The notes beneath the pieces were generated by a model. That model was not told the origin of the DNA, did no database searches, and was given only the letters and a program-made list of their open reading frames with translations. This document shows, in pieces, positions 8,283-64,000 of a DNA stretch of 64,000 bases (the first letter of the stretch is position 1; the number at the start of each line of letters is the position of its first letter). Position numbers and translations under genes: made by a program. Origin of the DNA: Patescibacteria group bacterium (GTDB lineage Bacteria; Patescibacteriota; Minisyncoccia; UBA6257; GWB1-50-10); contig JBBTQX010000002.1 of assembly GCA_038065455.1 (NCBI GenBank), positions 6,779 through 70,778 on the forward strand, read 5' to 3'.

Positions 8283-8328
8283 ATTATTGTATTTTTGTTT
8301 ATTTTTATATTTAACCTTGACCTTTTGA

Positions 8329-8389
8329 CCGGGCAGTAGAAATTCGATCAGTTCTTCTGCCGTGTTGCAATCGAATTTTCACTGCCCGG
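8329..8389. repeat. E-family inverted-repeat element, short copy E1 (61 bp)
   Basis: CCGGGCAGTAGAAATTCGAT .. ATCGAATTTTCACTGCCCGG, near-perfect 22-bp arms; flanked by a TTGA direct repeat; the right arm encodes the last three codons and the stop of grpE. Confidence 0.6.
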
Positions 8390-8864
8390 TTGACAATTTC
8401 ACCCTGACGGGTTTTATGACTTTATTGTGCAACTTGTATCCTCCCGATACCTCTTCCGCTATCGTTCCCGGCGGCTCCGCGGCATTCACTTCGCCTATCG
8501 CTTCCGCCAGATTAGTATCGAAAGGGTCGCCGCGCTGAATTTTGATTCTTTCGAGGCCGTGTTTTTTCAAAATATCCTCGAGCTGACTCCTGATCAGCTC
8601 CACTCCTTTCTTCGCCGGATCGCCGTCCTTCAAGACCGAGAGGCTCAATTCGAAGCTATCCAAAGCGGGAATAAGGTCGGCTATGAGCATTTCATTCGAG
8701 AACTTGGCAAAGTTTTCCAGACGCCCCGCTTCTTCTTTTTTGTAATTAATCAGGTCGGCTTTCGCCCGCTTCCACCCGTTCAGATACTCCTCTTTTTCCC
8801 TTTCCAGTTTCGCAATCGGGTCTTCCGGAATATTATTATTATTTAAATCTTGTTCTTCGGACAT
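8379..8864 (-). CDS. grpE: nucleotide exchange factor GrpE
   Basis: Position between hrcA and dnaK, size, and GrpE-like C-terminal beta domain. Confidence 0.8.
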   Translation of the reverse strand: MSEEQDLNNNNIPEDPIAKLEREKEEYLNGWKRAKADLINYKKEEAGRLENFAKFSNEMLIADLIPALDSFELSLSVLKDGDPAKKGVELIRSQLEDILKKHGLERIKIQRGDPFDTNLAEAIGEVNAAEPPGTIAEEVSGGYKLHNKVIKPVRVKLSTGQ

Positions 8865-9015: not shown

Positions 9016-9717
9016 TTAATTTTCCATTGATTTTTCGAGCGACTTTAAGAATCTTATCGGCTTCGTGTAATCCATCCGTTTCGGACCGATGGTAATCATC
9101 AGGAAATCTTCCGGCCCGCGATTGAAATAAGTGGCGAAAACGGAAATATGGGGACTCCGCGTGACCGGGCTCTGGCCCACGAAAACGCGCGGCCAATCTT
9201 TTTCCTTCTCCCACCAGGATTTATTTTCCAATATCCTTTCCGGCAATTTCTCGAAATCCCGCACCACCTCCACCAAATCTTTCTTGGCCACGGTATCGAG
9301 CTGTTCTAAAAGTTCCTCCAGTCCGCTGCCGAAAAATTCGCCTTCGTGAGGCAGGAATCCCACACCCATAAGACCGAGTTCTTCGGCCACCTCTTCCACG
9401 AAAGATTTTCTCCCGCCTCTCATAAAATCCGCGGTCAATTCTTTTAGGACATTCGAATCCTTTTCTTTTTTCGGCTCCTCAGTCAAAAATTGTTCGGCCA
9501 AGAAGCGATAGGCTTTGTCGGTCGGAATCCGCCCGCCCGAAGGATGTTTGCGGGAAAAGTAGCCGTCTTCGGCCAACTCGGAAAGCTCCAGTCGAATCAT
9601 GGCCGGCCGGATGCCAAAATCGTAGTTCTCAAAAAGATGGTCGGAGGTGACCGGCTGGCCCGTTTTCACGAAGTCCCGCACCGCCGCTTCCAATATATCT
9701 CTGCTCCTTTCCGTCAT
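9016..9717 (-). CDS. hrcA: heat-inducible transcription repressor HrcA (short form)
   Basis: N-terminal winged-helix region (ILEAAVRDFVKTGQPVTS) and position first in the hrcA-grpE-dnaK operon. Confidence 0.75.
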   Translation of the reverse strand: MTERSRDILEAAVRDFVKTGQPVTSDHLFENYDFGIRPAMIRLELSELAEDGYFSRKHPSGGRIPTDKAYRFLAEQFLTEEPKKEKDSNVLKELTADFMRGGRKSFVEEVAEELGLMGVGFLPHEGEFFGSGLEELLEQLDTVAKKDLVEVVRDFEKLPERILENKSWWEKEKDWPRVFVGQSPVTRSPHISVFATYFNRGPEDFLMITIGPKRMDYTKPIRFLKSLEKSMEN

Positions 9718-9718
9718 A

Positions 9719-9757
9719 GTGGGAATTATATATTAGCACTCAAATGTGTCAAGCGCC
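9719..9757 (-). promoter_or_regulatory. degenerate CIRCE-like operator overlapping a -10 box, upstream of hrcA
   Basis: On the minus strand: TTGGCGCTT-N9-GAGTGCTAA, then TATATAATT, then ccact and ATG. The right half is perfect CIRCE, the left half 6/9. The TATAAT lies ~10 nt from the ATG, hinting at a leaderless mRNA. Confidence 0.4.
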
Positions 9758-9765
9758 AATTGATT

Positions 9766-9921
9766 GGGATACCGTGCCCCTATTCCCTTCAGCACCGGGT
9801 GTCGCGGTTCTCCCGCGGAACCGCGCACCACTAAGCTCTCGGCGAAAAATCCACCCTTCTGGGTGGAGCCGAGCTTTTTCGCCTCCGAGATTTGCTTCAG
9901 GGAACACGGGCACGGTATCCC
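9766..9921. ncRNA. 156-nt GC-rich highly structured element closed by a perfect 14-bp inverted repeat (candidate ncRNA/riboregulator, or MITE)
   Basis: GGGATACCGTGCCC..GGGCACGGTATCCC closing helix, extended by TTCCCTTCAGCA/TGCTTCAGGGAA. Internal hairpins CGCGGTTC-tcccgcg-GAACCGCG and CTCGGC[..CACCC-ttct-GGGTGG..]GCCGAG; alternative pairing GGCGAAAAA/TTTTTCGCC; U-runs after the hairpins. Confidence 0.4.
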
Positions 9922-10099
9922 TTATTTCCAAAAAATTATTTATTTAACAAATATCCTTATTGCAACCTACATTTATCTAAATAAATATCAAATGAATAAG
10001 GGGTTATTATCCCAGAAAATGAAATTTTCTGATTAATTTTTAATGCTGCTGCGGTTTTTGCCCAATCTGAATCAAAGAGACAATGTATTATTTAATGTT

Positions 10100-10915
10100 C
10101 TACGGGCAGGTGGCGGTCGAGGTGGCGATAGCGCCAGTATTTGAAATACCCAAAAGGAAGCAGGTGCCGCCTGCCGATTTCAAAATGACGCCGTAAGCCG
10201 AATCGGAAAATCCGATATTCCCCGCCGCTTTAATGAGCGCATTGGTAGAAGGCGAAAAATTTACTCCCAAGCCGATCTGGCCATATTGGCCGCCGATTGA
10301 AACATTATTATTGAAATAGCCCGTGTACCACGGATTCACGGCTGTACCCAATGTAAGAGAACTAGAGGCGGCGGTGGGATAAACTGCCGAATCGAATTGG
10401 GCAGCCGAAACTCGAGCAATGGCTGTCTGAAGCGAACGAGTAAGTTGAGCGGAAGGAGTAGGCGAATTGTAAGTCATTGTGACGCCCAATTGAATGATGG
10501 CGAGCCCACCGGGATTTTCGTATTTGGTAGCCGTAAAACTATTGACGGTCACGTTGGAATTGGTAATGGCGACGGGCGTGCTTGATGGAATCACCGAACC
10601 CTCGCTCAAGTAAACCGCGGTACCGCTCGCGTAAATAAGGGTCGGGTCGAGCGTCGAGGAAGTCATCCTTAACTTGATAGTCGAGGTTGCGACGCCGCCT
10701 TCCATATCAATCAGGCTCGAATCGCGAACTAATTGCTGGACAGTGCCCGCGACGAAAGAAACTTGGTTGTTAACCTCATTCACGGAGTTTTGGCGAGTTT
10801 GGATCCTCGTAACCGAGAGCAAAATCGCCGTCAAAAACACCGCGCTCCCCGCGAAGATGGCGACATAAATAAGAAGTTCAATAAGTGAATAGCCTTTTTC
10901 TTCCTTGAAATTCAT
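10100..10915 (-). CDS. type IV pilin-like / pseudopilin (class III signal peptide)
   Basis: KGYSLIELLIYVAIFA prepilin cleavage/methylation motif after the internal Met; Ser/Thr-rich body. Confidence 0.65.
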   Translation of the reverse strand: MNFKEEKGYSLIELLIYVAIFAGSAVFLTAILLSVTRIQTRQNSVNEVNNQVSFVAGTVQQLVRDSSLIDMEGGVATSTIKLRMTSSTLDPTLIYASGTAVYLSEGSVIPSSTPVAITNSNVTVNSFTATKYENPGGLAIIQLGVTMTYNSPTPSAQLTRSLQTAIARVSAAQFDSAVYPTAASSSLTLGTAVNPWYTGYFNNNVSIGGQYGQIGLGVNFSPSTNALIKAAGNIGFSDSAYGVILKSAGGTCFLLGISNTGAIATSTATCP

Positions 10916-14151: not shown

Positions 14152-14199
14152 TAGATTAATTCTACTAAATTGGTAGGAGTTAGAATAGCAGAACCTTCC

Positions 14200-14420
14200 T
14201 TCTAAAACACGCTATCAAATTCCCCGGCGTGGAATTTGCGCTCGCTCTCGGCCTCACTCTTCCGCTTCGCGGAAACCTTGCCCGTTCGGCCTGCGAGACG
14301 GTTTAAGGAGCAGGAAAATAGGACTGTTTGAATCCCGAAGCGAAGCGGAGGTTAAGTTCCGCATTTTCCGTCGGCGGATGATGAGGAATGAGCCTTGAAA
14401 TTATCCGAGCGGAGAGCTGT
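14200..14420. other. GC-rich, hairpin-dense 290-nt intergenic segment (possible ncRNA or leader)
   Basis: TTCCGC-TTC-GCGGAA, CCTGC..GCAGG and GCGGAggttaagTTCCGC hairpins, plus an unusually long spacer for this genome. Confidence 0.25.
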
Positions 14421-17645: not shown

Positions 17646-19491
17646 TGATTCGGTTATTATAGTACCACAAGAAAACGTCCCTAGCCACCGGCACGACGTT
17701 CAAACTGCCTTCCCGCGCATTTTCCACGAGTATTAAAATGGCGATTTTGGGGTCGTCATAAGGAGCGAAGCCGACGAAAAACGCGTTGGTCTTCGTGTTG
17801 TTCGAAACCTGGGCCGAGCCGGTTTTGGCGGCGACCGGAATCGGCAAGTCATGCAGAAGATAGGAAGTGCCGTAATCCCGAATCACGCCTTCGCGCATCC
17901 CCTTCCTCACTTCCGCGAGCGCCGGACCGATCTCGGCCGAAAGGTCGCGGAGAATCGCCGCCTCGTTCTTCAAAATCGTCTCGCCTTTGATATTTTTTAT
18001 TTCATTCATCACGCGCGGCTTGTTCAGCTTGCCGCCATTTGCAACTGCATTTATGTAATTCAGAAGTTCGATGGGCGTCACCGAAAAATCGCCCTGGCCA
18101 ATCGAGACGTTGAAAGTATCTCCCAAGCGCCATGGCTCGCCTTTTACTCTTTCTTTCCATGCTGGATCCGGCAAGAAACCAGCATCCTCCCCCGTTAAAT
18201 CTATATTCGTCTTTTCGTCGAGACCGAAATTATGCCACCACTTTTTCAATCTTTCTATTCCCAAGCCTTTCTGGTCTCCGAAACCGCCGCCCACGGAATA
18301 GAAATAGACATTCGAGGAACGAGCCAGAGCCGAATATAAATCCACCCAACCCTGCGGCCGCCAATCCAAAAATCGGCTCGGATGCTCCGGGTTGTAGGGA
18401 TTCGGAACATCGAGATAGCCCGGCGAATAAATTTGATGTTTCGGATCCAAGATGCCTTCCGTAAGCGCCGCGGTTCCCACCAGGGGCTTAATGGTCGAAC
18501 CGGGATTGTAAATACCGGAAATCGCCCGATTAAAGAGCGGCTGATTGGCAGAGGTAAGATACTTTCCTATTTTATTCGAATCGAACGAAGGAATATTCAC
18601 AAGAGAAAGAACTTCGCCGTTCCGCGGGTCCATCGCTATCGCAAGGCCGGTATCCCGGCCCAAATCGCGAAGCGCTTGGCTCAAGCGGTCGTAGATATAT
18701 GTCTGGAGATCCCGATCAATAAAAGATGTAAGATTGTTGCCTGGAATCGGCTCCTGAACCGTTCTTTCTTTTTCGGTTCCGCCCACTGCGTTCGTGAGCG
18801 CAACCTTCTCACCGCTCGTTCCCCGAAGATATCCGTCGTAAAAAGCCTCGAGACCATTCCGCCCGACCTGGTCGTCGATATGCAACTCCGAATCTTTCTT
18901 CATATCACTCTTGTTTGCCAAACCAGTATAGCCGACTACGTGGGAAAATTTGAAAAGCGGCGTTTGAACGCGCCGGAACGACGGGTCTATCTCCAAGCCC
19001 GGAAGATTCGCGGCGGAGAGGGATACTAATTCATCGTGATCAAGATCGGGTTTCAAAAGAAATCGGTCGGTCAAATTCCAGTCCCGTTCCTCGAGAGCTC
19101 CAAGCACCTCGTTCTCATATAAACCCAAAGTATTCAAAACATCTCCAATTGCCATTCGCCTTTCCGCAGAAGTTTTCGGAAGAGATTTCGGAACGAGATA
19201 GGCATCGAAAGCGGGCTCGTTTTCGACCATAGCCTTTCCGAAACGGTCGTAGATAATCCCCCGCGGAGCGGGCTCCGTTTTTATATCGCTCATATTCGCC
19301 GTAGCGCGCCGGGAATAGGGTTCATGATTCAAGACCGCCAAGTTCACAAATTGGGCGAAGACGGCAAGAAAAACCAGCGCGACCAAGATGATGAAATTCC
19401 TGAAAACCCGGTCCGTGAGAGGAATTTCCAAAAGGTCTTCCTCGACCGTTCGGTCGGTCAGAATGTCTTCCAGATTAAGCTCGGGATTCAT
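17638..19491 (-). CDS. mrdA: penicillin-binding protein 2 / FtsI-type peptidoglycan transpeptidase
   Basis: SxxK (STIKP), SxN and KTG transpeptidase motifs; follows mreBCD. Confidence 0.85.
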   Translation of the reverse strand: MNPELNLEDILTDRTVEEDLLEIPLTDRVFRNFIILVALVFLAVFAQFVNLAVLNHEPYSRRATANMSDIKTEPAPRGIIYDRFGKAMVENEPAFDAYLVPKSLPKTSAERRMAIGDVLNTLGLYENEVLGALEERDWNLTDRFLLKPDLDHDELVSLSAANLPGLEIDPSFRRVQTPLFKFSHVVGYTGLANKSDMKKDSELHIDDQVGRNGLEAFYDGYLRGTSGEKVALTNAVGGTEKERTVQEPIPGNNLTSFIDRDLQTYIYDRLSQALRDLGRDTGLAIAMDPRNGEVLSLVNIPSFDSNKIGKYLTSANQPLFNRAISGIYNPGSTIKPLVGTAALTEGILDPKHQIYSPGYLDVPNPYNPEHPSRFLDWRPQGWVDLYSALARSSNVYFYSVGGGFGDQKGLGIERLKKWWHNFGLDEKTNIDLTGEDAGFLPDPAWKERVKGEPWRLGDTFNVSIGQGDFSVTPIELLNYINAVANGGKLNKPRVMNEIKNIKGETILKNEAAILRDLSAEIGPALAEVRKGMREGVIRDYGTSYLLHDLPIPVAAKTGSAQVSNNTKTNAFFVGFAPYDDPKIAILILVENAREGSLNVVPVARDVFLWYYNNRING

Positions 19492-19612
19492 CCCGTTAGA
19501 AACAGGATGCGCTTAACAAGCACATCCGTCTAGATTCAAACGACTTTATTATTGCAATGTTCCCCTGTATTGTTTCCATGATATTTCTGAATTTGCCCGT
19601 TTCTAACGGGAT
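19490..19612. mobile_element. G-family MITE copy A (TIR ATCCCGTTAGAAACA / GTTTCTAACGGGAT)
   Basis: 13-15 bp TIR shared with the GIY-YIG element; flanks GGGATTCAT|..|ATTCATG (direct repeat ATTCAT). The left flank supplies the pbp2 ATG; the right TIR supplies the mreD stop. Confidence 0.75.
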
Positions 19613-20097
19613 TCATGAAGATAACCGTATTTTCCAAAAAAATTCAAACAAAGCCAAAAAATCGAACCCAAAACCAGATTATAAACGACTTCGCCAAAAA
19701 CAAAACCGCCGGCAAAAACACTGCCGGCCGTAAATTTGAGCGCTCCGTAAAATATTACTGTTCCCAAGCCGACGGCCAAAAGAAAATCTTGGAAGGACCG
19801 GCCCGTGAAGAAGTTTCGCAGGAAGAAGATTGCAAGAATTATCAAAAGGAGTATGGCCCAAGGCAACATCCAAAAATCGGACAAAATCAAAGTTACCGCA
19901 AAAGCAAAAAACAGCAGAATATATAAAAAACCCGGCTTTATCCGTTTCTTGAAATAAGGTTCGAGAAGCAAGCCAGAGAAAAATATGAGCGCCAGATTGG
20001 GATTGATTCCGCCTAAACTCAAAATTCGGGTCATTCCCAAAAAAATCAAAAGTCCCAGGAAAAGGAGTACAAAAACGAAACGGAACAAATCTCCCAT
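19603..20097 (-). CDS. mreD: rod shape-determining protein MreD (probable)
   Basis: Small polytopic membrane protein between mreC and pbp2. Its last four codons and stop lie inside MITE A. Confidence 0.55.
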   Translation of the reverse strand: MGDLFRFVFVLLFLGLLIFLGMTRILSLGGINPNLALIFFSGLLLEPYFKKRIKPGFLYILLFFAFAVTLILSDFWMLPWAILLLIILAIFFLRNFFTGRSFQDFLLAVGLGTVIFYGALKFTAGSVFAGGFVFGEVVYNLVLGSIFWLCLNFFGKYGYLHESR

Positions 20098-28831: not shown

Positions 28832-28846
28832 TTATTAAAGGTATGT

Positions 28847-29128
28847 ATCCCGTTAGAGACATTTCTATGTATTACAATTACGTTTTAAGAAGCAAAAAAG
28901 ATGGGAAATGGTATACTGGCTACACGAATGATCTACGGAAGCGCTTTAGCCAGCACAATAGCGATAAATTCCCTCAATGGACCAAAAATCGGGGTCCTTT
29001 TGAAATCATATACTATGAAGCCTGCAAAGATCTGCAAGATGCAAGGTCGAGGGAATATTATCTAAAAACAGGAATGGGTAAACGTTATATCAAAAATAGG
29101 CTAAAGCGCTTCCTGTCTCTAACGGGAT
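28847..29128 (+). mobile_element. G-family coding element: 282-bp unit with perfect 15-bp TIRs enclosing only a GIY-YIG nuclease ORF
   Basis: ATCCCGTTAGAGACA at 28847-28861 and TGTCTCTAACGGGAT at 29114-29128; AT-rich (~37% GC); flanks ATGTAT / ATGAAC; the TIRs encode the ORF's N- and C-termini. Confidence 0.7.
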
Positions 29129-29130
29129 GA
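28867..29130 (+). CDS. GIY-YIG nuclease family protein (YhbQ/YazA UPF0213-like, ~87-95 aa)
   Basis: YYNYVLRS..DGKWYTGYTNDLRKRFSQHN ... RGPFEIIYYE...AR.REYYLK. GIY-YIG motifs with the catalytic Arg and Glu in place. An alternative ATG at 28843 lies inside the left TIR. Confidence 0.7.
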   Translation: MYYNYVLRSKKDGKWYTGYTNDLRKRFSQHNSDKFPQWTKNRGPFEIIYYEACKDLQDARSREYYLKTGMGKRYIKNRLKRFLSLTG

Positions 29131-30371
29131 ACCTCAAAACCCGGCGAACTCTCTTTTACTTCTTCATTCTCATATTCGTCCTTGCGGGCGCTTATCTCCT
29201 CGCAACCGCCCAGGGGCTGGTCCTGGATTTCAAAAATCTGAAGATTACCGGCACTGGCGGGCTCTTTTTGAAGTACGTTCCGCCCGACGCGACTGTGGAA
29301 TTGAACGGCAAAAAAACCGATGTTTCGCCCGGCCTCGTTTCGAGCGGAATTTTCATCTCTAAATTAATTCCCGACGAATACCGGGTAAAGATTTCAAAAC
29401 CGGGCTTCTCTGCCTGGGAAAAGACACTCGCGGTTAAGAACGGCGCGGTGGCTTCGGCGAGCCAAATCAGGCTCTGGCCCGAAGTCTGGGATTTGAATGT
29501 CATTACGACGAGCTCCGTCCGGGATTTCCGGCTCACGGGTGCGGGTCTAGTACTCCAAGGAAAAAACGGAACTCTTCGGCTGGACGGATTTTCTTTGGGA
29601 AACAGGAGTGTCGCTTTGAGCGGGCCGGACTCGTCCCTCATCGTTACGACCGATGAAAAAGAAAATTTTGTAACCAATCTCGAAGATTTGTCACCCGCGC
29701 TCGATATCGTCCGGCTCTTTAATTCGCTGAAACAAAGCCAGTTGAATCTTCCCGGCACGATCATTCCTAAAAATTACTTCCTTCATCCCTTTAACGCCAA
29801 AATTCTCATCACGACCGGAAACGCGCTTTACTCGCTCGATATCAAAAGATTGAGACTTGAAAAACTGACCGATATGGCAGGAATTAAGAAGGCGGAATTA
29901 AGGGGAAACGAAATGTTTCTTTTCGATATGAAAGACAATATAACGACATTCAATCTTTTTCTCCAAACTGCCAGAATTTATGAATCGACCTCCACCGAAG
30001 CCATCGGAATAGGAGCGAGCCTGGCCGGCTTGCCGGCCCCCGACGGGAAAAAGATTTTTTTGCTTTCAAAAAACGACACGCTTTCTTTGAAAGTTTTGGA
30101 AAATTATTATGCCGACGGCGAAGTGAGAAAGGGCGATATGTGGCCCGTTTTTTCCGACCGGGGCAAAATAACGGATTTCAAATGGTTGAATGGCAATTCT
30201 AATTATGCGCTGGTACTTGCCGAAAAAAACTTGTTCATCGTTGAAACCGACCGGCGCACCCCGCAGAATATCCGACTCATATCCCAAGGAGTGGAAAAAT
30301 TCGCGACGGAGGGAAACGATCTCTATATCCTCAAAACCGACGGCACGCTTCTGAGGGCGAGTTTGAAGTAG
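29127..30371 (+). CDS. PEGA-domain envelope protein (hypothetical)
   Basis: N-terminal TM helix; PEGA-like segment (VPPDATVELNGKKTD...YRVKISKPGFSAWEKTLAVKNG). Its ATG is formed by the element's flank. Confidence 0.45.
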   Translation: MNLKTRRTLFYFFILIFVLAGAYLLATAQGLVLDFKNLKITGTGGLFLKYVPPDATVELNGKKTDVSPGLVSSGIFISKLIPDEYRVKISKPGFSAWEKTLAVKNGAVASASQIRLWPEVWDLNVITTSSVRDFRLTGAGLVLQGKNGTLRLDGFSLGNRSVALSGPDSSLIVTTDEKENFVTNLEDLSPALDIVRLFNSLKQSQLNLPGTIIPKNYFLHPFNAKILITTGNALYSLDIKRLRLEKLTDMAGIKKAELRGNEMFLFDMKDNITTFNLFLQTARIYESTSTEAIGIGASLAGLPAPDGKKIFLLSKNDTLSLKVLENYYADGEVRKGDMWPVFSDRGKITDFKWLNGNSNYALVLAEKNLFIVETDRRTPQNIRLISQGVEKFATEGNDLYILKTDGTLLRASLK

Positions 30372-33296: not shown

Positions 33297-33896
33297 TTAA
33301 CGCGAATAGAATTGGCCGACCACGTTTATATCGAAAGGTAGTTGCACTCCGGTAACGGGCGGTTTTGCCACGCACTCGCCTTTCAATTCCTCCGCTTTGA
33401 GCTTAAGCCACTCAGGCGGGGTGTATTGCTTCAACCGGAGTTGAATATCATCGAAAATCTTCGCCGAGCGGGATTCGGGCCGCACAGCAATAATGTCTTT
33501 AACCCTAACATAATAGGAAGGAATTGTCACTTTTCGGCCATTCACGTGGATATGGCCGTGGGAGACGAGCTGGCGGGCGATTCTCGGAGACTTCGCGAAT
33601 CCCAAAAGAAAAACCACGTGGTCGAGGCGGCTTTCGAGCTTGGTCATAATGCCGTCTTTGTCGGAATTCCGGAACATTCTCATCATCTGATGATTATTCA
33701 GCCCGTAAAGAATTTGGATTTTCTGTTTTTCCTGGAGCTGCTTTCCGAATTCGGAAACGGAGTGGCGCGCCTGGCCGTGCTGGCCCGGGCGGTAAGGATG
33801 GCGTACCATCGCGCACTTCGGCGAATTACAGCGGTCTCCCTTGAGGAAGAGTTTGATGCCCAGCGATCTTTCTTTTTTCTCTTTGATTCTTTTCAT
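33297..33896 (-). CDS. rpsD: 30S ribosomal protein S4
   Basis: Zn-ribbon CNSPKC, S4 domain. Start at the internal Met (MKRIKEKK), whose ATG is the flank of MITE B. Confidence 0.85.
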   Translation of the reverse strand: MKRIKEKKERSLGIKLFLKGDRCNSPKCAMVRHPYRPGQHGQARHSVSEFGKQLQEKQKIQILYGLNNHQMMRMFRNSDKDGIMTKLESRLDHVVFLLGFAKSPRIARQLVSHGHIHVNGRKVTIPSYYVRVKDIIAVRPESRSAKIFDDIQLRLKQYTPPEWLKLKAEELKGECVAKPPVTGVQLPFDINVVGQFYSR

Positions 33897-34018
33897 CCCG
33901 TTTAGAGACAGGATACGCTTAAGAAGCATATCCGTGAAGCATTAGCCGATTCGACTTTATTGGATTCTATTGATTGTTTGATAATCATGTTATTCATAAG
34001 TTTGATGTCTCTAACGGG
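33897..34018. mobile_element. G-family MITE copy B (122 bp)
   Basis: CCCGTTTAGAGACA..TGTCTCTAACGGG; flanks TTCAT|..|ATTCAT; subterminal hairpin GGATACGC-ttaagaa-GCATATCC. Confidence 0.75.
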
Positions 34019-34030
34019 ATTCATATTTTT

Positions 34031-34175
34031 ACCAGGCAGTGAAAATGCGATTGCAAATCGTGATTGAATCGACGATTCTCGCTATTTCCAATGACCTTTT
34101 ATTTATATTCATATGTTTTGATATTATGATGGTTTTCGATTTGAATTCAATCTAATCGCATTTCTACTGCCTGGT
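34031..34175. repeat. E-family inverted-repeat element E3 (145 bp)
   Basis: ACCAGGCAGTGAAAATGCGATTGCAAATCG .. AATCTAATCGCATTTCTACTGCCTGGT; interior homologous to E2 (GATTGCAAAT, TGAATCGA, TTGACCTTT, CATAT); ends on the rpsK stop codon. Confidence 0.6.
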
Positions 34176-34624
34176 TAAACCCTTCTGGTCTTGGCCGGAC
34201 GCGGTCCGTTGTGCGGAATCGGCGTCACATCCTTGATGGACAGTATATTCAAGCCCTTGCCGGCGAAAGAACGGATGGCGGAATCGCGGCCGCTACCCAC
34301 GCCGCGCACGAAAATCTCCACGGTATTCGGGCCGGTCTTTTCCAATTTCTGGGCAATGGCTTCGGCGACTTTGGAAGACGCGAAAGGAGTCGCCTTCTTG
34401 GGTCCGGAAAATCCCAAAGAGCCAGCGGACATCCATGTAATCACGGCACCCTTATCGTCGGTTACGGTAATAATGGTGTTATTATAGGTGGCTTGAATAT
34501 AGATACGGCCGTTTTCCCAGTGCTGTTTGGATGTGGACGAAGATTGCTTAGCCGGCGCCTTTTCGGCCGTCCCCGCTTCCTTCACCGCTTCGTCTTTGGT
34601 TTTTATGACTTTTTTCTTTCCCAT
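34175..34624 (-). CDS. rpsK: 30S ribosomal protein S11 (N-terminal lysine/alanine-rich extension)
   Basis: Conserved S11 core (A.I.ATFNNTI.T.TD..G....W.S.G..GF.G.KK.TPFAA). Confidence 0.85.
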   Translation of the reverse strand: MGKKKVIKTKDEAVKEAGTAEKAPAKQSSSTSKQHWENGRIYIQATYNNTIITVTDDKGAVITWMSAGSLGFSGPKKATPFASSKVAEAIAQKLEKTGPNTVEIFVRGVGSGRDSAIRSFAGKGLNILSIKDVTPIPHNGPRPAKTRRV

Positions 34625-35181: not shown

Positions 35182-35298
35182 TTATCCTTGTCTTTGTTTA
35201 TGCCTCGGGTTCTTGGCACATATGACGTAAACCCGCCCTTTTCGACGGACGGTCTTGCAAACGCTGCAGATTTTTTTTACCGATGCTCTGACTTTCAT
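35182..35298 (-). CDS. rpmJ: 50S ribosomal protein L36
   Basis: Hand translation [38 protein letters not shown], with the CxxC..C..H zinc ribbon. The ATG is supplied by the MITE C flank. Confidence 0.85.
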
Positions 35299-35418
35299 CC
35301 CGTTAGAGACAGGATACGCTTAAAAAGCGCATCCGTGATATGTCGCTTGGTTTGATTATTCCGACCTGTTGGTTATTCATATTGATACATTATTCAAAAT
35401 TTGTTTGTCTCTAACGGG
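35299..35418. mobile_element. G-family MITE copy C (120 bp)
   Basis: CCCGTTAGAGACA..TGTCTCTAACGGG; flanks TTCAT|..|ATTCAT; hairpin GGATACGC-ttaaaaa-GCGCATCC; interior homologous to copy B (GTTATTCATA). Confidence 0.75.
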
Positions 35419-35430
35419 ATTCATAAAACT

Positions 35431-44868: not shown

Positions 44869-44884
44869 TTTAAATTAGTCTATG

Positions 44885-44917
44885 GGTGGTATAATTGACT
44901 ATACCACCTGGTTTTTT
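44885..44917. repeat. P-family palindromic unit, variant copy (GGTGGTATA-attgac-TATACCACC plus T6)
   Basis: 9-bp perfect stem followed by a T-run; overlaps the doxX 3' end, and its loop supplies the doxX stop codon. Confidence 0.5.
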
Positions 44918-47142: not shown

Positions 47143-47172
47143 CTAGGTGGTGTCTTTAAAGACACCACCTAG
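47143..47172. repeat. P-family palindromic unit (CTAGGTGGTGTCTTT|AAAGACACCACCTAG)
   Basis: 30-bp perfect palindrome with a T-run on the plus strand; intergenic between the Cys-rich gene and eno. Confidence 0.6.
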
Positions 47173-62829: not shown

Positions 62830-64000
62830 TTATCCCCAGGGTGGTGTCTTTAAAGACACCACCCTGTTTTTCGACGTTTTCAAAATGAAAGTTGCGATTG
62901 CCAGATAATAAGCAACAATAAAAATCCAACCCAAAGACACGCTTAGAGATAGATTGAAGTTGCCGAAGAATTCTATCAGTCCCGTCTCGACTTTCAATAG
63001 CGGCCAAACGAACCAGCCGGCGATGAGCGCGAGATAATGCGAGATGCCGGAGAGAACGGCGACGGCGAAGCCGAGCATCATCGTATACGGAATAAGCTCC
63101 AGAACCAGAACATTCGAGATGAGCGAAATAGGCGAAAAATTCCCGAAGTTCTGGATTAATATCGGAAGAACCATAAGCTGAGCGGAGCCGGTCATCAGGA
63201 GATTCTCCCGCCAGGAAAAAGTTTCTTTTTTCCCGCCGACCGGCAAATTGAAAAGCTCTTCGAGCGCCGGCTTCAAATATACGATGCCGATGAGCGCGAG
63301 GAATGAAAGTTCAAAACCGGCATCGAATACCAACACCTTGGGATTTATAAGCACCATCAAGAGTCCCGCTAAAGTTATGGCATTCCGCGGATTGAAGATG
63401 CGGCCGCTCTCGGTCGCAACGACGACGAGCGCGCCCATAATCGCCGCTCGCACGACCGATGCCTCCGCTCCGGTCATAAGCACGAAGGCGACAAGGAAAA
63501 TGAAGGCGACAATAAAAGCAGTCCTTCTTTTCAAGAATGAAGTGAGTAAAGCCATTGCCGCCACGATGACGATCGAGACGTTGTAGCCCGAAAGCGCGAC
63601 CAGGTGCGTCGTGCCGCTTATCTGCATCGCCACTTTGAACTCGGGAGAAAAATCGCTCCGCTCACCCAAGGTCAGGCCGGAAAGAAAAGCCGCTTCCTCG
63701 ACCGGCAATATCTCTCCGAAATTATCCACAGTGGAATTCTTGAGATTGAATAAAAAAGATTTGAAGGGCGCGCCCTTATCTTCCGCGATTAGCTTAACTT
63801 CGGGATATGAAACAATTCCGCTTATTCCCTCCTTCGCCAGATATTGGGCATAGCCTGCCTGCGCAGGCAGGCCTCCCAATTCCGGTTTTTTGACCGCGCC
63901 ATTTACCGAAATCAAGTCGCCATAATGGAATTCGGGATAGCGCGGAGCATTTACGAGAATTTTCACCTTGGCGCCGGAAAATTCCGTTTGGACGTAAAGA
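62830..64000 (-). CDS. comEC: ComEC/Rec2 competence protein, N-terminal OB/DUF4131 plus transmembrane competence domain (runs off the window)
   Basis: Polytopic membrane region with ComEC-like motifs; stops 19 nt before the metallo-beta-lactamase-domain ORF. Confidence 0.6.
   Translation of the reverse strand, partial: LYVQTEFSGAKVKILVNAPRYPEFHYGDLISVNGAVKKPELGGLPAQAGYAQYLAKEGISGIVSYPEVKLIAEDKGAPFKSFLFNLKNSTVDNFGEILPVEEAAFLSGLTLGERSDFSPEFKVAMQISGTTHLVALSGYNVSIVIVAAMALLTSFLKRRTAFIVAFIFLVAFVLMTGAEASVVRAAIMGALVVVATESGRIFNPRNAITLAGLLMVLINPKVLVFDAGFELSFLALIGIVYLKPALEELFNLPVGGKKETFSWRENLLMTGSAQLMVLPILIQNFGNFSPISLISNVLVLELIPYTMMLGFAVAVLSGISHYLALIAGWFVWPLLKVETGLIEFFGNFNLSLSVSLGWIFIVAYYLAIATFILKTSKNRVVSLKTPPWG
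62837..62866. repeat. P-family palindromic unit (CAGGGTGGTGTCTTT|AAAGACACCACCCTG) inside the 3' end of the comEC transmembrane ORF
   Basis: The 24-bp core is identical to the 47143 copy; outer pairs covary (CTA/TAG versus CAG/CTG). It encodes the last ~10 codons (..SLKTPPWG) and sits just before the stop. Confidence 0.6.

Follow-up and report, generated by a model that had tools for sequence, protein, structure and literature searches.

What is a strongly palindromic piece of DNA doing directly upstream of a heat-shock operon in a bacterium with a reduced genome? The element that raises this question lies beside hrcA, at positions 9766-9921 of a 64,000-nt stretch of a Patescibacteria group bacterium (contig JBBTQX010000002.1 of assembly GCA_038065455.1; the whole 64-kb stretch is hereafter the window). 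A preliminary description of this DNA had offered three answers: a cis-regulatory leader of the operon, an independent small RNA, or a third kind of MITE (miniature inverted-repeat transposable element). Patescibacteria (the Candidate Phyla Radiation, CPR) have very small, streamlined genomes; to our knowledge little has been reported on small repeat elements in them, and a search of the literature on small repeats of this kind in Patescibacteria/CPR found nothing relevant. We conclude that the element is probably one copy of a dispersed family of palindromic non-coding repeats of ~150 nt in groundwater Patescibacteria (Minisyncoccia/Jorgensenbacteria-like), with terminator or insulator as its probable role at this site. 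The family is a previously undescribed, structurally conserved variant of small palindromic intergenic repeats. The idea that the element regulates hrcA falls, and the points of interest are the family's conserved fold and its locus-specific arms.

A dispersed family and its common fold

The element, a copy of what we call the close subfamily, is described here on the minus strand, where its folding energy is lower and G-U pairs are more numerous, and in the direction of which a pilin-like gene and hrcA are read. The pairings of the preliminary description are present in the sequence. Its outer arms are the two halves of a perfect 14-bp inverted repeat, GGGATACCGTGCCC at 9766-9779 and the reverse complement GGGCACGGTATCCC at 9908-9921; these are the sole two matches in the 64 kb even with up to two mismatches allowed, and the arms reach 29 nt with 86% complementarity. 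The arms enclose a conserved core (9780-9907, minus strand), made up of the inner part of a long stem with a tandem G-A internal loop, a three-way junction and two hairpins, A and B. Hairpin B (9803-9825, minus strand) pairs CGCGGTTC with GAACCGCG (9803-9810/9818-9825) around a conserved loop CGCRGGA. Hairpin A (9841-9883, minus strand) consists of GGCGAAAAA, a 7-nt bulge GCTCGGC, TCCACCC-AGAA-GGGTGGA and then TTTTTCGCC, with the pairing GGCGAAAAA/TTTTTCGCC at 9841-9849/9875-9883 and the CCACCC-N4-GGGTGG hairpin at 9850-9867; it is terminator-like, is followed by a T-run, and has a 5' A-run able to pair with that T-run. The pairings are also mutually exclusive, as had been noticed, with CTCGGC/GCCGAG (9838-9843/9869-9874) overlapping GGCGAAAAA. 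The U-runs that had been reported behind the CACCC/GGGTGG hairpin on both strands lie directly behind it on the minus strand and 8 nt further on along the plus strand.

Folded as RNA, the element reaches -90 kcal/mol on the plus strand (z -8.6) and -98 kcal/mol on the minus strand (z -9.5), and folded as DNA -56 kcal/mol (z -9.4); in all three cases none of 200 shuffles folds as well. An identical element is found in three independent assemblies of Hainich groundwater metagenomes (L001, L008 and L009), so it is real DNA and not an assembly artefact. The preliminary inspection by eye had matched it to no SRP, 6S, RNase P, tmRNA or common riboswitch consensus sequence, and no Rfam family matches it: Rfam 15 at gathering thresholds yields nothing in the window, a search of 9650-10110 with E up to 10 yields only chance-level matches of 11-17 bits, and related loci give no Rfam match. 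Inspection by eye likewise found no hammerhead core (CUGANGA/GAAA), no features of signal recognition particle RNA, 6S or tmRNA, and no integron attC motif (GTTRRRY).

The other close copies came to light through spurious protein calls. Four of the six reading frames are open across the element, so gene callers at times call a spurious open reading frame (ORF) on copies of it. Searched exhaustively with HMMER, the 62-residue translation of a single frame brought up three such ORFs, and a profile search added a fourth. These ORFs are artefacts of open GC-rich frames. (A concatenated six-frame translation run against a word-indexed protein database found nothing.) Beside the window element, the close copies lie at L039 319-480, from Hainich well H32, directly 3' of rpmA; at L040 213-358 (GCA_030841365.1), 5 nt from the serS stop codon; at L041 968-1136, intergenic between two genes that neighbour each other in the window; and in L042/L043/L044, from Hainich H41 and H52, where the copy overlaps the dnaE stop codon.

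Three covariance models were built: R1 from the single sequence, R2 from the five close copies, and R3 with the addition of L012 18934-19099. This distant member, which lies in frame inside parB, had scored 43.6 bits (E 1e-8) with R2 before its inclusion; R3 then recovers a second at L012/L014 9794-9950 (56.5 bits), upstream of hrcA in the same position and orientation as the window element, and a third in the window itself at 14185-14329 (minus strand; 36.6 bits, E 9e-8 with filters off), 3' of serS. The last shares homology with the L012 strain's element upstream of hrcA, and a different repeat, at 14305-14384, adjoins it. For comparison, R2 and R3 score the element at 9766-9921 at 182 and 172 bits. 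The family so far comprises five close and three distant copies of 146-169 nt with unrelated flanks, and the AT-rich left flanks of the copies have no significant homology. Two members in the window and two in the 20.7-kb locus L012 suggest, by rough extrapolation, tens of copies per genome. The parB member occupies the linker that joins the GRGLSSLIP motif to the ParB_N domain (residues 16-71); we note that it encodes a low-complexity stretch of ~55 residues in this N-terminal linker, a candidate insertion in one ParB only.

The five close copies each fold independently into the same architecture of a long outer stem, a symmetric tandem G-A loop (CTGAAG in both arms), a three-way junction and hairpins A and B. 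Across them hairpin A keeps the order of A-run, 7-nt bulge GCTYGGY, short G+C stem-loop and T-run, with a compensatory change from A-T to G-C in L042, and hairpin B keeps the loop CGCRGGA on a stem that covaries (GGTTC/GAACC, TTTGC/GCAAA, TTCTGC/GCAGAA, CTCGG/CGAG). In an alignment of six sequences (one distant member besides the five close copies) pairing extends to 95% of cells, and both sides have changed in 42 of 61 pairs, figures from an alignment fitted to the model and from a DNA palindrome that gives the same signal on both strands; none of 500 shuffles reaches the observed pairing, and slid partners give 38-54% paired. The covariation analysis of homologous copies that had been suggested as a check, made on these six sequences in the model-fitted alignment, returns two-sided changes that would fit a folded RNA and a DNA palindrome alike. 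Fold and G-A loop are also preserved in the distant members, along with the motifs GUCUCG...GCCGAGAG and CGCNGG, and the family's invariant core words are CGACACCCGGTGCT and TTTTCGCCGAGAGC.

Core and arms differ sharply in how they are conserved. Between close copies the core of ~125 nt has 78-96% identity. In any one copy the outermost 10-14 bp pair perfectly, yet they are unrelated between most copies (GGGATACCGTGCCC, AGCAGAAATCTCC, GCCCCGCCTGT and AGATATTTTCTTAT at different loci), so that outer arms from different loci are 14-54% identical, L040 and L041 (75%) apart, and the window and L039 copies share 96% of the core and 46% of the outer arms. The copies sit at unrelated intergenic sites, often right behind a stop codon, and their presence or absence between near-identical strains indicates that the family spreads, or is exchanged, as DNA.

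The slot upstream of hrcA

The genes hrcA (9717-9016), grpE and dnaK all lie on the minus strand, and the element is indeed near hrcA, at 48 nt (not 45 nt, as had been given) from its ATG at 9717. Within that gap stands a promoter, TTGACA-16-TATAAT (9752->9725, minus strand; -35 at 9752-9747, -10 at 9730-9725), the only 12/12 match to the sigma-70 consensus in 20 kb. Overlapping its -35 hexamer, and ending 6 nt from the element, is TTGGCGCTT-N9-GAGTGCTAA (9733-9759, minus strand), which, by the established consensus, reads as an HrcA operator like CIRCE (controlling inverted repeat of chaperone expression); relatives carry TTAGCACTT-N9-GAGTGCTAA at this position. Only 7 nt separate the -10 hexamer from the hrcA ATG and there is no Shine-Dalgarno sequence. 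With so short a distance the hrcA mRNA is probably leaderless.

This layout bears directly on the idea of a cis-acting leader for the hrcA-grpE-dnaK operon, either an RNA thermometer or a terminator/antiterminator attenuator. Its closeness to hrcA, the alternative pairings and the U-runs speak for such a leader, but the -35 of a perfect promoter, and CIRCE with it, stand between the element and the gene, so that the element is upstream of both and outside the hrcA transcript (the start of which is inferred from the promoter), and with 7-11 nt between the -10 hexamer and the ATG in relatives there is no space for a structured leader. Moreover, the same element adjoins rpmA, serS and dnaE, and it is missing from a strain whose HrcA and promoter are both identical to those here. 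We regard a leader function as hardly credible.

The comparison with that strain is instructive. In contigs L002-L007 HrcA is identical to that of the window and the element is absent: DNA identity is 99.8% from 9760 through hrcA-grpE and 96% from the stop codon of the pilin-like gene outwards, and the whole 340-nt intergenic stretch between has been replaced. The shift of identity to the L002 strain from 96% to 99.8% across the replaced region (9760/9761, 10100/10101) indicates a recent recombination breakpoint at the hrcA promoter. Among relatives with 76-96% HrcA identity no close copy is found at the hrcA site, and none of their hrcA-upstream intergenic regions is significantly similar to that of the window; the element is absent there in L018-L023, and the strain of L012-L017 (96% HrcA identity) has yet other sequences, with only a very distant member of the superfamily in L012. 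In all relatives compared the promoter/CIRCE block is kept and the sequence upstream of it replaced. A block that is kept while the element is absent rules out a conserved hrcA leader. In L002, L019, L020 and L021 the site is occupied by a different repeat, of what we call the GAATCCC family, which is probably the older state of the slot, judging from its presence upstream of the hrcA promoter in the more distant L019, L020 and L021 as well. The hrcA-upstream slot is, on these alignments, a hot spot of repeat turnover.

What, then, might the element do in this slot? The type IV pilin-like gene (10915-10100, minus strand; N-terminus MNFKEEKG/YSLIELLIYVAIF, with a weak N_methyl Pfam match in its orthologues) reads into the element, from which its stop codon is separated by 178 nt of AT-rich spacer. 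A terminator scan marks a site at 9867->9850 on the minus strand, TCCACCCAGAAGGGTGGA plus TTTTTCGCCG; from the pilin-like gene to the hrcA promoter it detects no other site of this kind. The same site recurs in L039 and L040, and L041 and L042 have variant hairpins with a T-run; the close subfamily thereby has the feature by which SPRITE-type repeats are recognised, a G+C-rich stem-loop followed by a U-tract. In the plus-strand direction a T-rich tract lies behind the outer stem in all five close copies, three of which adjoin the stop codon of a gene that is transcribed the same way. The succession of A-run, hairpin and T-run is the layout of a two-way intrinsic terminator. In the terminator/antiterminator-like geometry of the preliminary description the A-run lies opposite the T-run across the hairpin, which explains the mutually exclusive pairings.

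We infer from these features that the close subfamily probably acts as a portable two-way terminator, which here would insulate the HrcA-controlled promoter. In the hypervariable slot between the pilin-like gene and that promoter, TCCACCC-AGAA-GGGTGGA followed by TTTTT on the minus strand would stop transcription coming from the pilin-like gene, and a stop at hairpin A would shield the HrcA/CIRCE-controlled heat-shock operon from read-through; on the other strand the whole fold followed by the T-rich tract has the look of a giant terminator. If the terminator activity is true, the family would represent a natural set of portable transcription insulators in genetically intractable organisms. 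The locus also holds a warning for annotation, in that a striking hairpin beside a regulator gene need not regulate that gene.

Mode of spread and rival explanations

Several observations weigh against a dispersed repeat family with a terminator role. The family has only eight members, and only one close copy lies in the 64-kb window; blastn, nhmmer and R1 found no second one there or in 200 kb of relatives, and neither arms nor core have a match elsewhere in the window. In GTDB genomes, JGI metagenomes and IMG/VR, scans for exact patterns brought up nothing real. With the pair of terminal inverted repeats as the pattern there were no matches in GTDB and two in the JGI metagenomes, both by chance, in a coding region of a high-GC organism; with the arm consensus there were 14 single matches in GTDB and one in IMG/VR, all in unrelated taxa and none confirmed by a covariance model, against ~17 chance matches estimated from collection size and pattern length. 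These arm-based scans used the wrong bait, because the arms are locus-specific; a core-pattern scan of viral contigs also gave no match, nor did BLAST against plasmid and phage collections. As to the terminator, the simple scan is not enriched in this genome (38 sites versus 30.8 +/- 6 in shuffles), and the distant subfamily is without the A-run and T-run, so a terminator is not universal in the superfamily. Furthermore, there is neither a consistent target-site duplication nor a terminal repeat common to all copies, and no partner transposase is known, an IS3-family element ~70 nt from the L042 copy having unrelated ends.

The last points decide how far the MITE proposal can be followed. Of the three answers first offered it comes nearest. 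The further copies that the preliminary description had named as a refuting observation do exist, though without consistent flank duplications. Multiple dispersed copies, small and non-coding and with unrelated flanks, were found, as expected of a MITE. The terminal inverted repeats, however, are not conserved among copies, and the flanks of the five close copies read AA/AA, AAA/AAA, GA/GA, GA/GA and none (L042), which is chance level in A-rich flanks. Two defining tests of a MITE thus fail and transposition is not demonstrated; a classical cut-and-paste MITE, with conserved terminal repeats and a target duplication of fixed length, is rejected. A conserved fold, perfect locus-specific arms and the lack of a target duplication together misfit the standard MITE model and point to another mechanism of spreading. 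That the arms are perfect and the inner stems imperfect might, as speculation, reflect hairpin-templated repair. A retron or diversity-generating retroelement is disfavoured, with no reverse transcriptase gene among the called genes beside any copy.

A variant of the dispersed-repeat reading with a specific mechanism is that only the core is mobile, inserted into or swapped between the loops of terminator hairpins, so that arms and T-tract would be the original terminator of the host gene. The sharp fall from 96% identity in the core to 46% in the arms between the window and L039 would fit, as would the arms and T-rich tracts of L039, L040 and L042, which form canonical terminators right after the stops of rpmA, serS and dnaE, and the long perfect palindromes (47146-47169, 62840-62863) that serve as ordinary terminators in this genome. 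However, L040 and L041 share arms (GCCCCGCC, 75% identity) despite unrelated flanks, the endpoint of similarity varies between copies, in the window and L041 the element is not entered by any gene along the terminator direction, and no empty hairpin was recovered at an orthologous site. The window and L012 strains do have different cores at the hrcA site in the same orientation, both flanked by GGATACC...GGTATCC, but this heptamer is short and was spotted post hoc. On balance we find this mechanism quite improbable.

Alternatively, the family might be a structured non-coding RNA or a motif of 3' untranslated regions, acting as the folded minus-strand transcript in protein binding or as a ribozyme-like or stabilising element, its many copies then reflecting repeated use and not selfish spread. 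Some of the evidence for this counts at the same time against the dispersed-repeat reading. Unpaired positions of the core are 56% invariant versus 31% of paired ones, the conserved residues lying in junction, bulge and loop; the tandem G-A loop is kept in every member, distant ones included; and G-U cells outnumber A-C cells by 16 to 4 (columns 10 versus 4) in the minus orientation. These three features point to selection on a folded single strand, not to selfish DNA. On the other strand the tandem G-A would become a destabilising U-C/C-U pair. All five copies reach a minimum free energy 8-12 kcal/mol lower when folded in the minus orientation, and compensatory change is extensive among copies that are only 42-52% identical in the core; an alternative pairing of the bulge GCUYGGY with GCCGAG is kept through G-U wobbles in L039 and L040. 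Yet with an alignment fitted to the structure and with copies of common ancestry, pair counts and G-U bias are not independent events. No promoter-like site stands upstream of any of the five copies, which, together with the absence of an Rfam match, leaves the independent small RNA that had been proposed unsupported. The internal hairpin followed by U5 would end transcription halfway in the minus orientation, leaving the 3' half and the outer stem untranscribed, and no T-run stands behind the outer stem in that orientation. Three of the five copies are head-on to the neighbouring gene, one copy lies inside a coding region, presence and absence vary between near-identical strains, and the perfect locus-specific outer arms suggest a process at the level of DNA. 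A functional RNA of this kind therefore seems unlikely to us.

We also entertain, as a doubtful prospect, that the family represents a new class, confined to Patescibacteria, of nucleic-acid elements selected for their structure: either a folded RNA, with the conserved three-way junction and tandem G-A motif, that has a defined molecular partner, or a hairpin element of single-stranded DNA (ssDNA). In the ssDNA version an unknown hairpin-recognising enzyme would move the element and rebuild its perfect, locus-specific arms at each new site. If either version were true, a mechanism of mobility or of RNA not yet described in reduced genomes would be at hand.

As a dispersed palindromic repeat, the element works like SPRITE, Correia, ERIC and Rickettsia palindromic elements (RPE), and belongs to none of these families. 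With SPRITEs our family has in common that its members are small non-coding repeats dispersed between genes, with a U-tract behind a terminator-like stem-loop; it differs in its unrelated sequence, in its phylum, in its more elaborate structure (a three-way junction on a long stem) and in a terminator feature that is absent from the distant subfamily and is here a prediction from sequence. It is also bunched with other repeats at window 14185-14384 and L039 130-480, and BOX, RUP and SPRITE elements cluster with, and abut, other repeat families (PMC10969869). Rickettsia palindromic elements are palindromes of ~150 bp that can sit in frame within protein genes (PMC10969869), and the distant member in frame in the ParB N-terminal linker of L012 resembles them, though it is a single intragenic case and most of our copies are intergenic.

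In the Correia elements (CREE/NEMIS) of Neisseria the terminal inverted repeats are conserved and a TA is duplicated at the target, whereas in the present family the outer arms vary between copies and there is no consistent duplication. The likeness to them lies in size, in the long hairpin formed by the ends, in the intergenic position and in presence or absence from strain to strain: Correia elements measure ~100-200 bp, their ends form a long hairpin, and they occur in intergenic positions near promoters and gene ends, vary between strains and affect neighbouring transcription (PMC10969869). ERIC elements (the intergenic repeat units of enterobacteria) are imperfect palindromes of ~127 bp that lie in intergenic regions which are transcribed, frequently 3' of genes; they are low in copy number and affect mRNA fate (PMC10969869, PMC2759123). 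Ours are likewise palindromic intergenic repeats on the 3' sides of genes, with no sequence relation to ERIC, which is conserved over its full length as compared to the core only. Terminator-like motifs, clustering, RNase processing and in-frame insertions of SPRITE, Correia, ERIC and RPE elements are all covered in one source (PMC10969869). REP/BIME elements, mobilised with RAYT/HUH proteins, are similar in being structure-defined palindromes at gene ends without a target duplication that are recognised as hairpins and not via terminal repeats. REPs themselves are 20-40 nt long, with a conserved GTAG motif and hundreds of copies alongside a RAYT gene, features that were not seen in the present family.

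Other repeats and neighbouring genes

The window genome carries other multi-copy small repeats that cluster with this family, and altogether at least four families of structured repeats of 70-200 nt swap in and out of shared intergenic slots when strains of 96-100% identity are compared. One such slot is the one directly upstream of the heat-shock operon promoter. The GAATCCC-family repeat (...GGACTGTTTGAATCCCGA...GGATGA...GCGAATGGAGGCCTGCGAGAGAGGGAA) lies at window 14305-14384, L002 2789-2894, L019 7785-7876, L020 9825-9890, L021 ~9790-9930 and L039 130-234, that is, upstream of the hrcA promoter in several species (77-100% HrcA identity) and also 3' of serS in the window; its inner hairpin varies (GAGCGATAGCGAGG in L020, TCGGGTTTCATGCATGAAACCCGAGG in L021), and Rfam gave no match to it. 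A genuine multi-copy family of MITE-like form, with conserved ends TTCATCCCGTTAGAGACAGGA ... GTCTCTAACGGGATTCAT, has three copies of ~130 nt (19487-19617, 33893-34025 and 35294-35425) and one of ~300 nt (28836-29136), all on the minus strand, within the 64 kb. An inverted-repeat element, ACCGGGCAGTAGAAATTCGAT ... ATCGAATTTTCACTGCCCGGT, lies at 8324-8390, between grpE and dnaK, and again at 34031-34179. Contigs of the L002 strain (L002-L004) reach window 8231 and stop shortly before the first of these copies, as expected of an assembly break at a repeat.

Identical perfect palindromes of 24 nt, GGTGGTGTCTTTAAAGACACCACC followed by TTTTT, occur at 47146-47169 and 62840-62863, 15 kb apart and with similar flanks; 44875-44916 and L042 5348-5426 are noted with them. 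Even plain terminators of the window genome thus resemble a repeated family. The IS3-family insertion sequence in L042 (139-1165, with HTH_Tnp_1 and rve genes) has an end that reads TGACCCCC, and contigs from other samples break inside it.

Within the AT-rich spacer, 73 nt from the element, lies a degenerate third copy of the arm (9994-10014, minus strand), TGGGATAATAACCCCTTATTC versus TGGGATACCGTGCCCCTATTC, 21 nt with 71% complementarity; it may be the remnant of an older hairpin, or chance (rough post-hoc chance estimate ~0.01-0.02). HrcA itself is short (233 aa) and scores just under the Pfam threshold; its homologues assign the organism to Patescibacteria, among Minisyncoccia or Jorgensenbacteria-like lineages. 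In the relatives L019, L021 and L022 two to five tandem paralogues of the pilin-like gene occupy its position, and the region adjoining the heat-shock operon is, to judge from this gene order, a variable pilin locus. In L022 (9745-10002; 77% HrcA identity) ~240 nt separate the CIRCE/promoter block from the hrcA ATG downstream of it, and the intervening space holds a long hairpin-rich insert between promoter and start codon, a repeat-like insert inside the leader.

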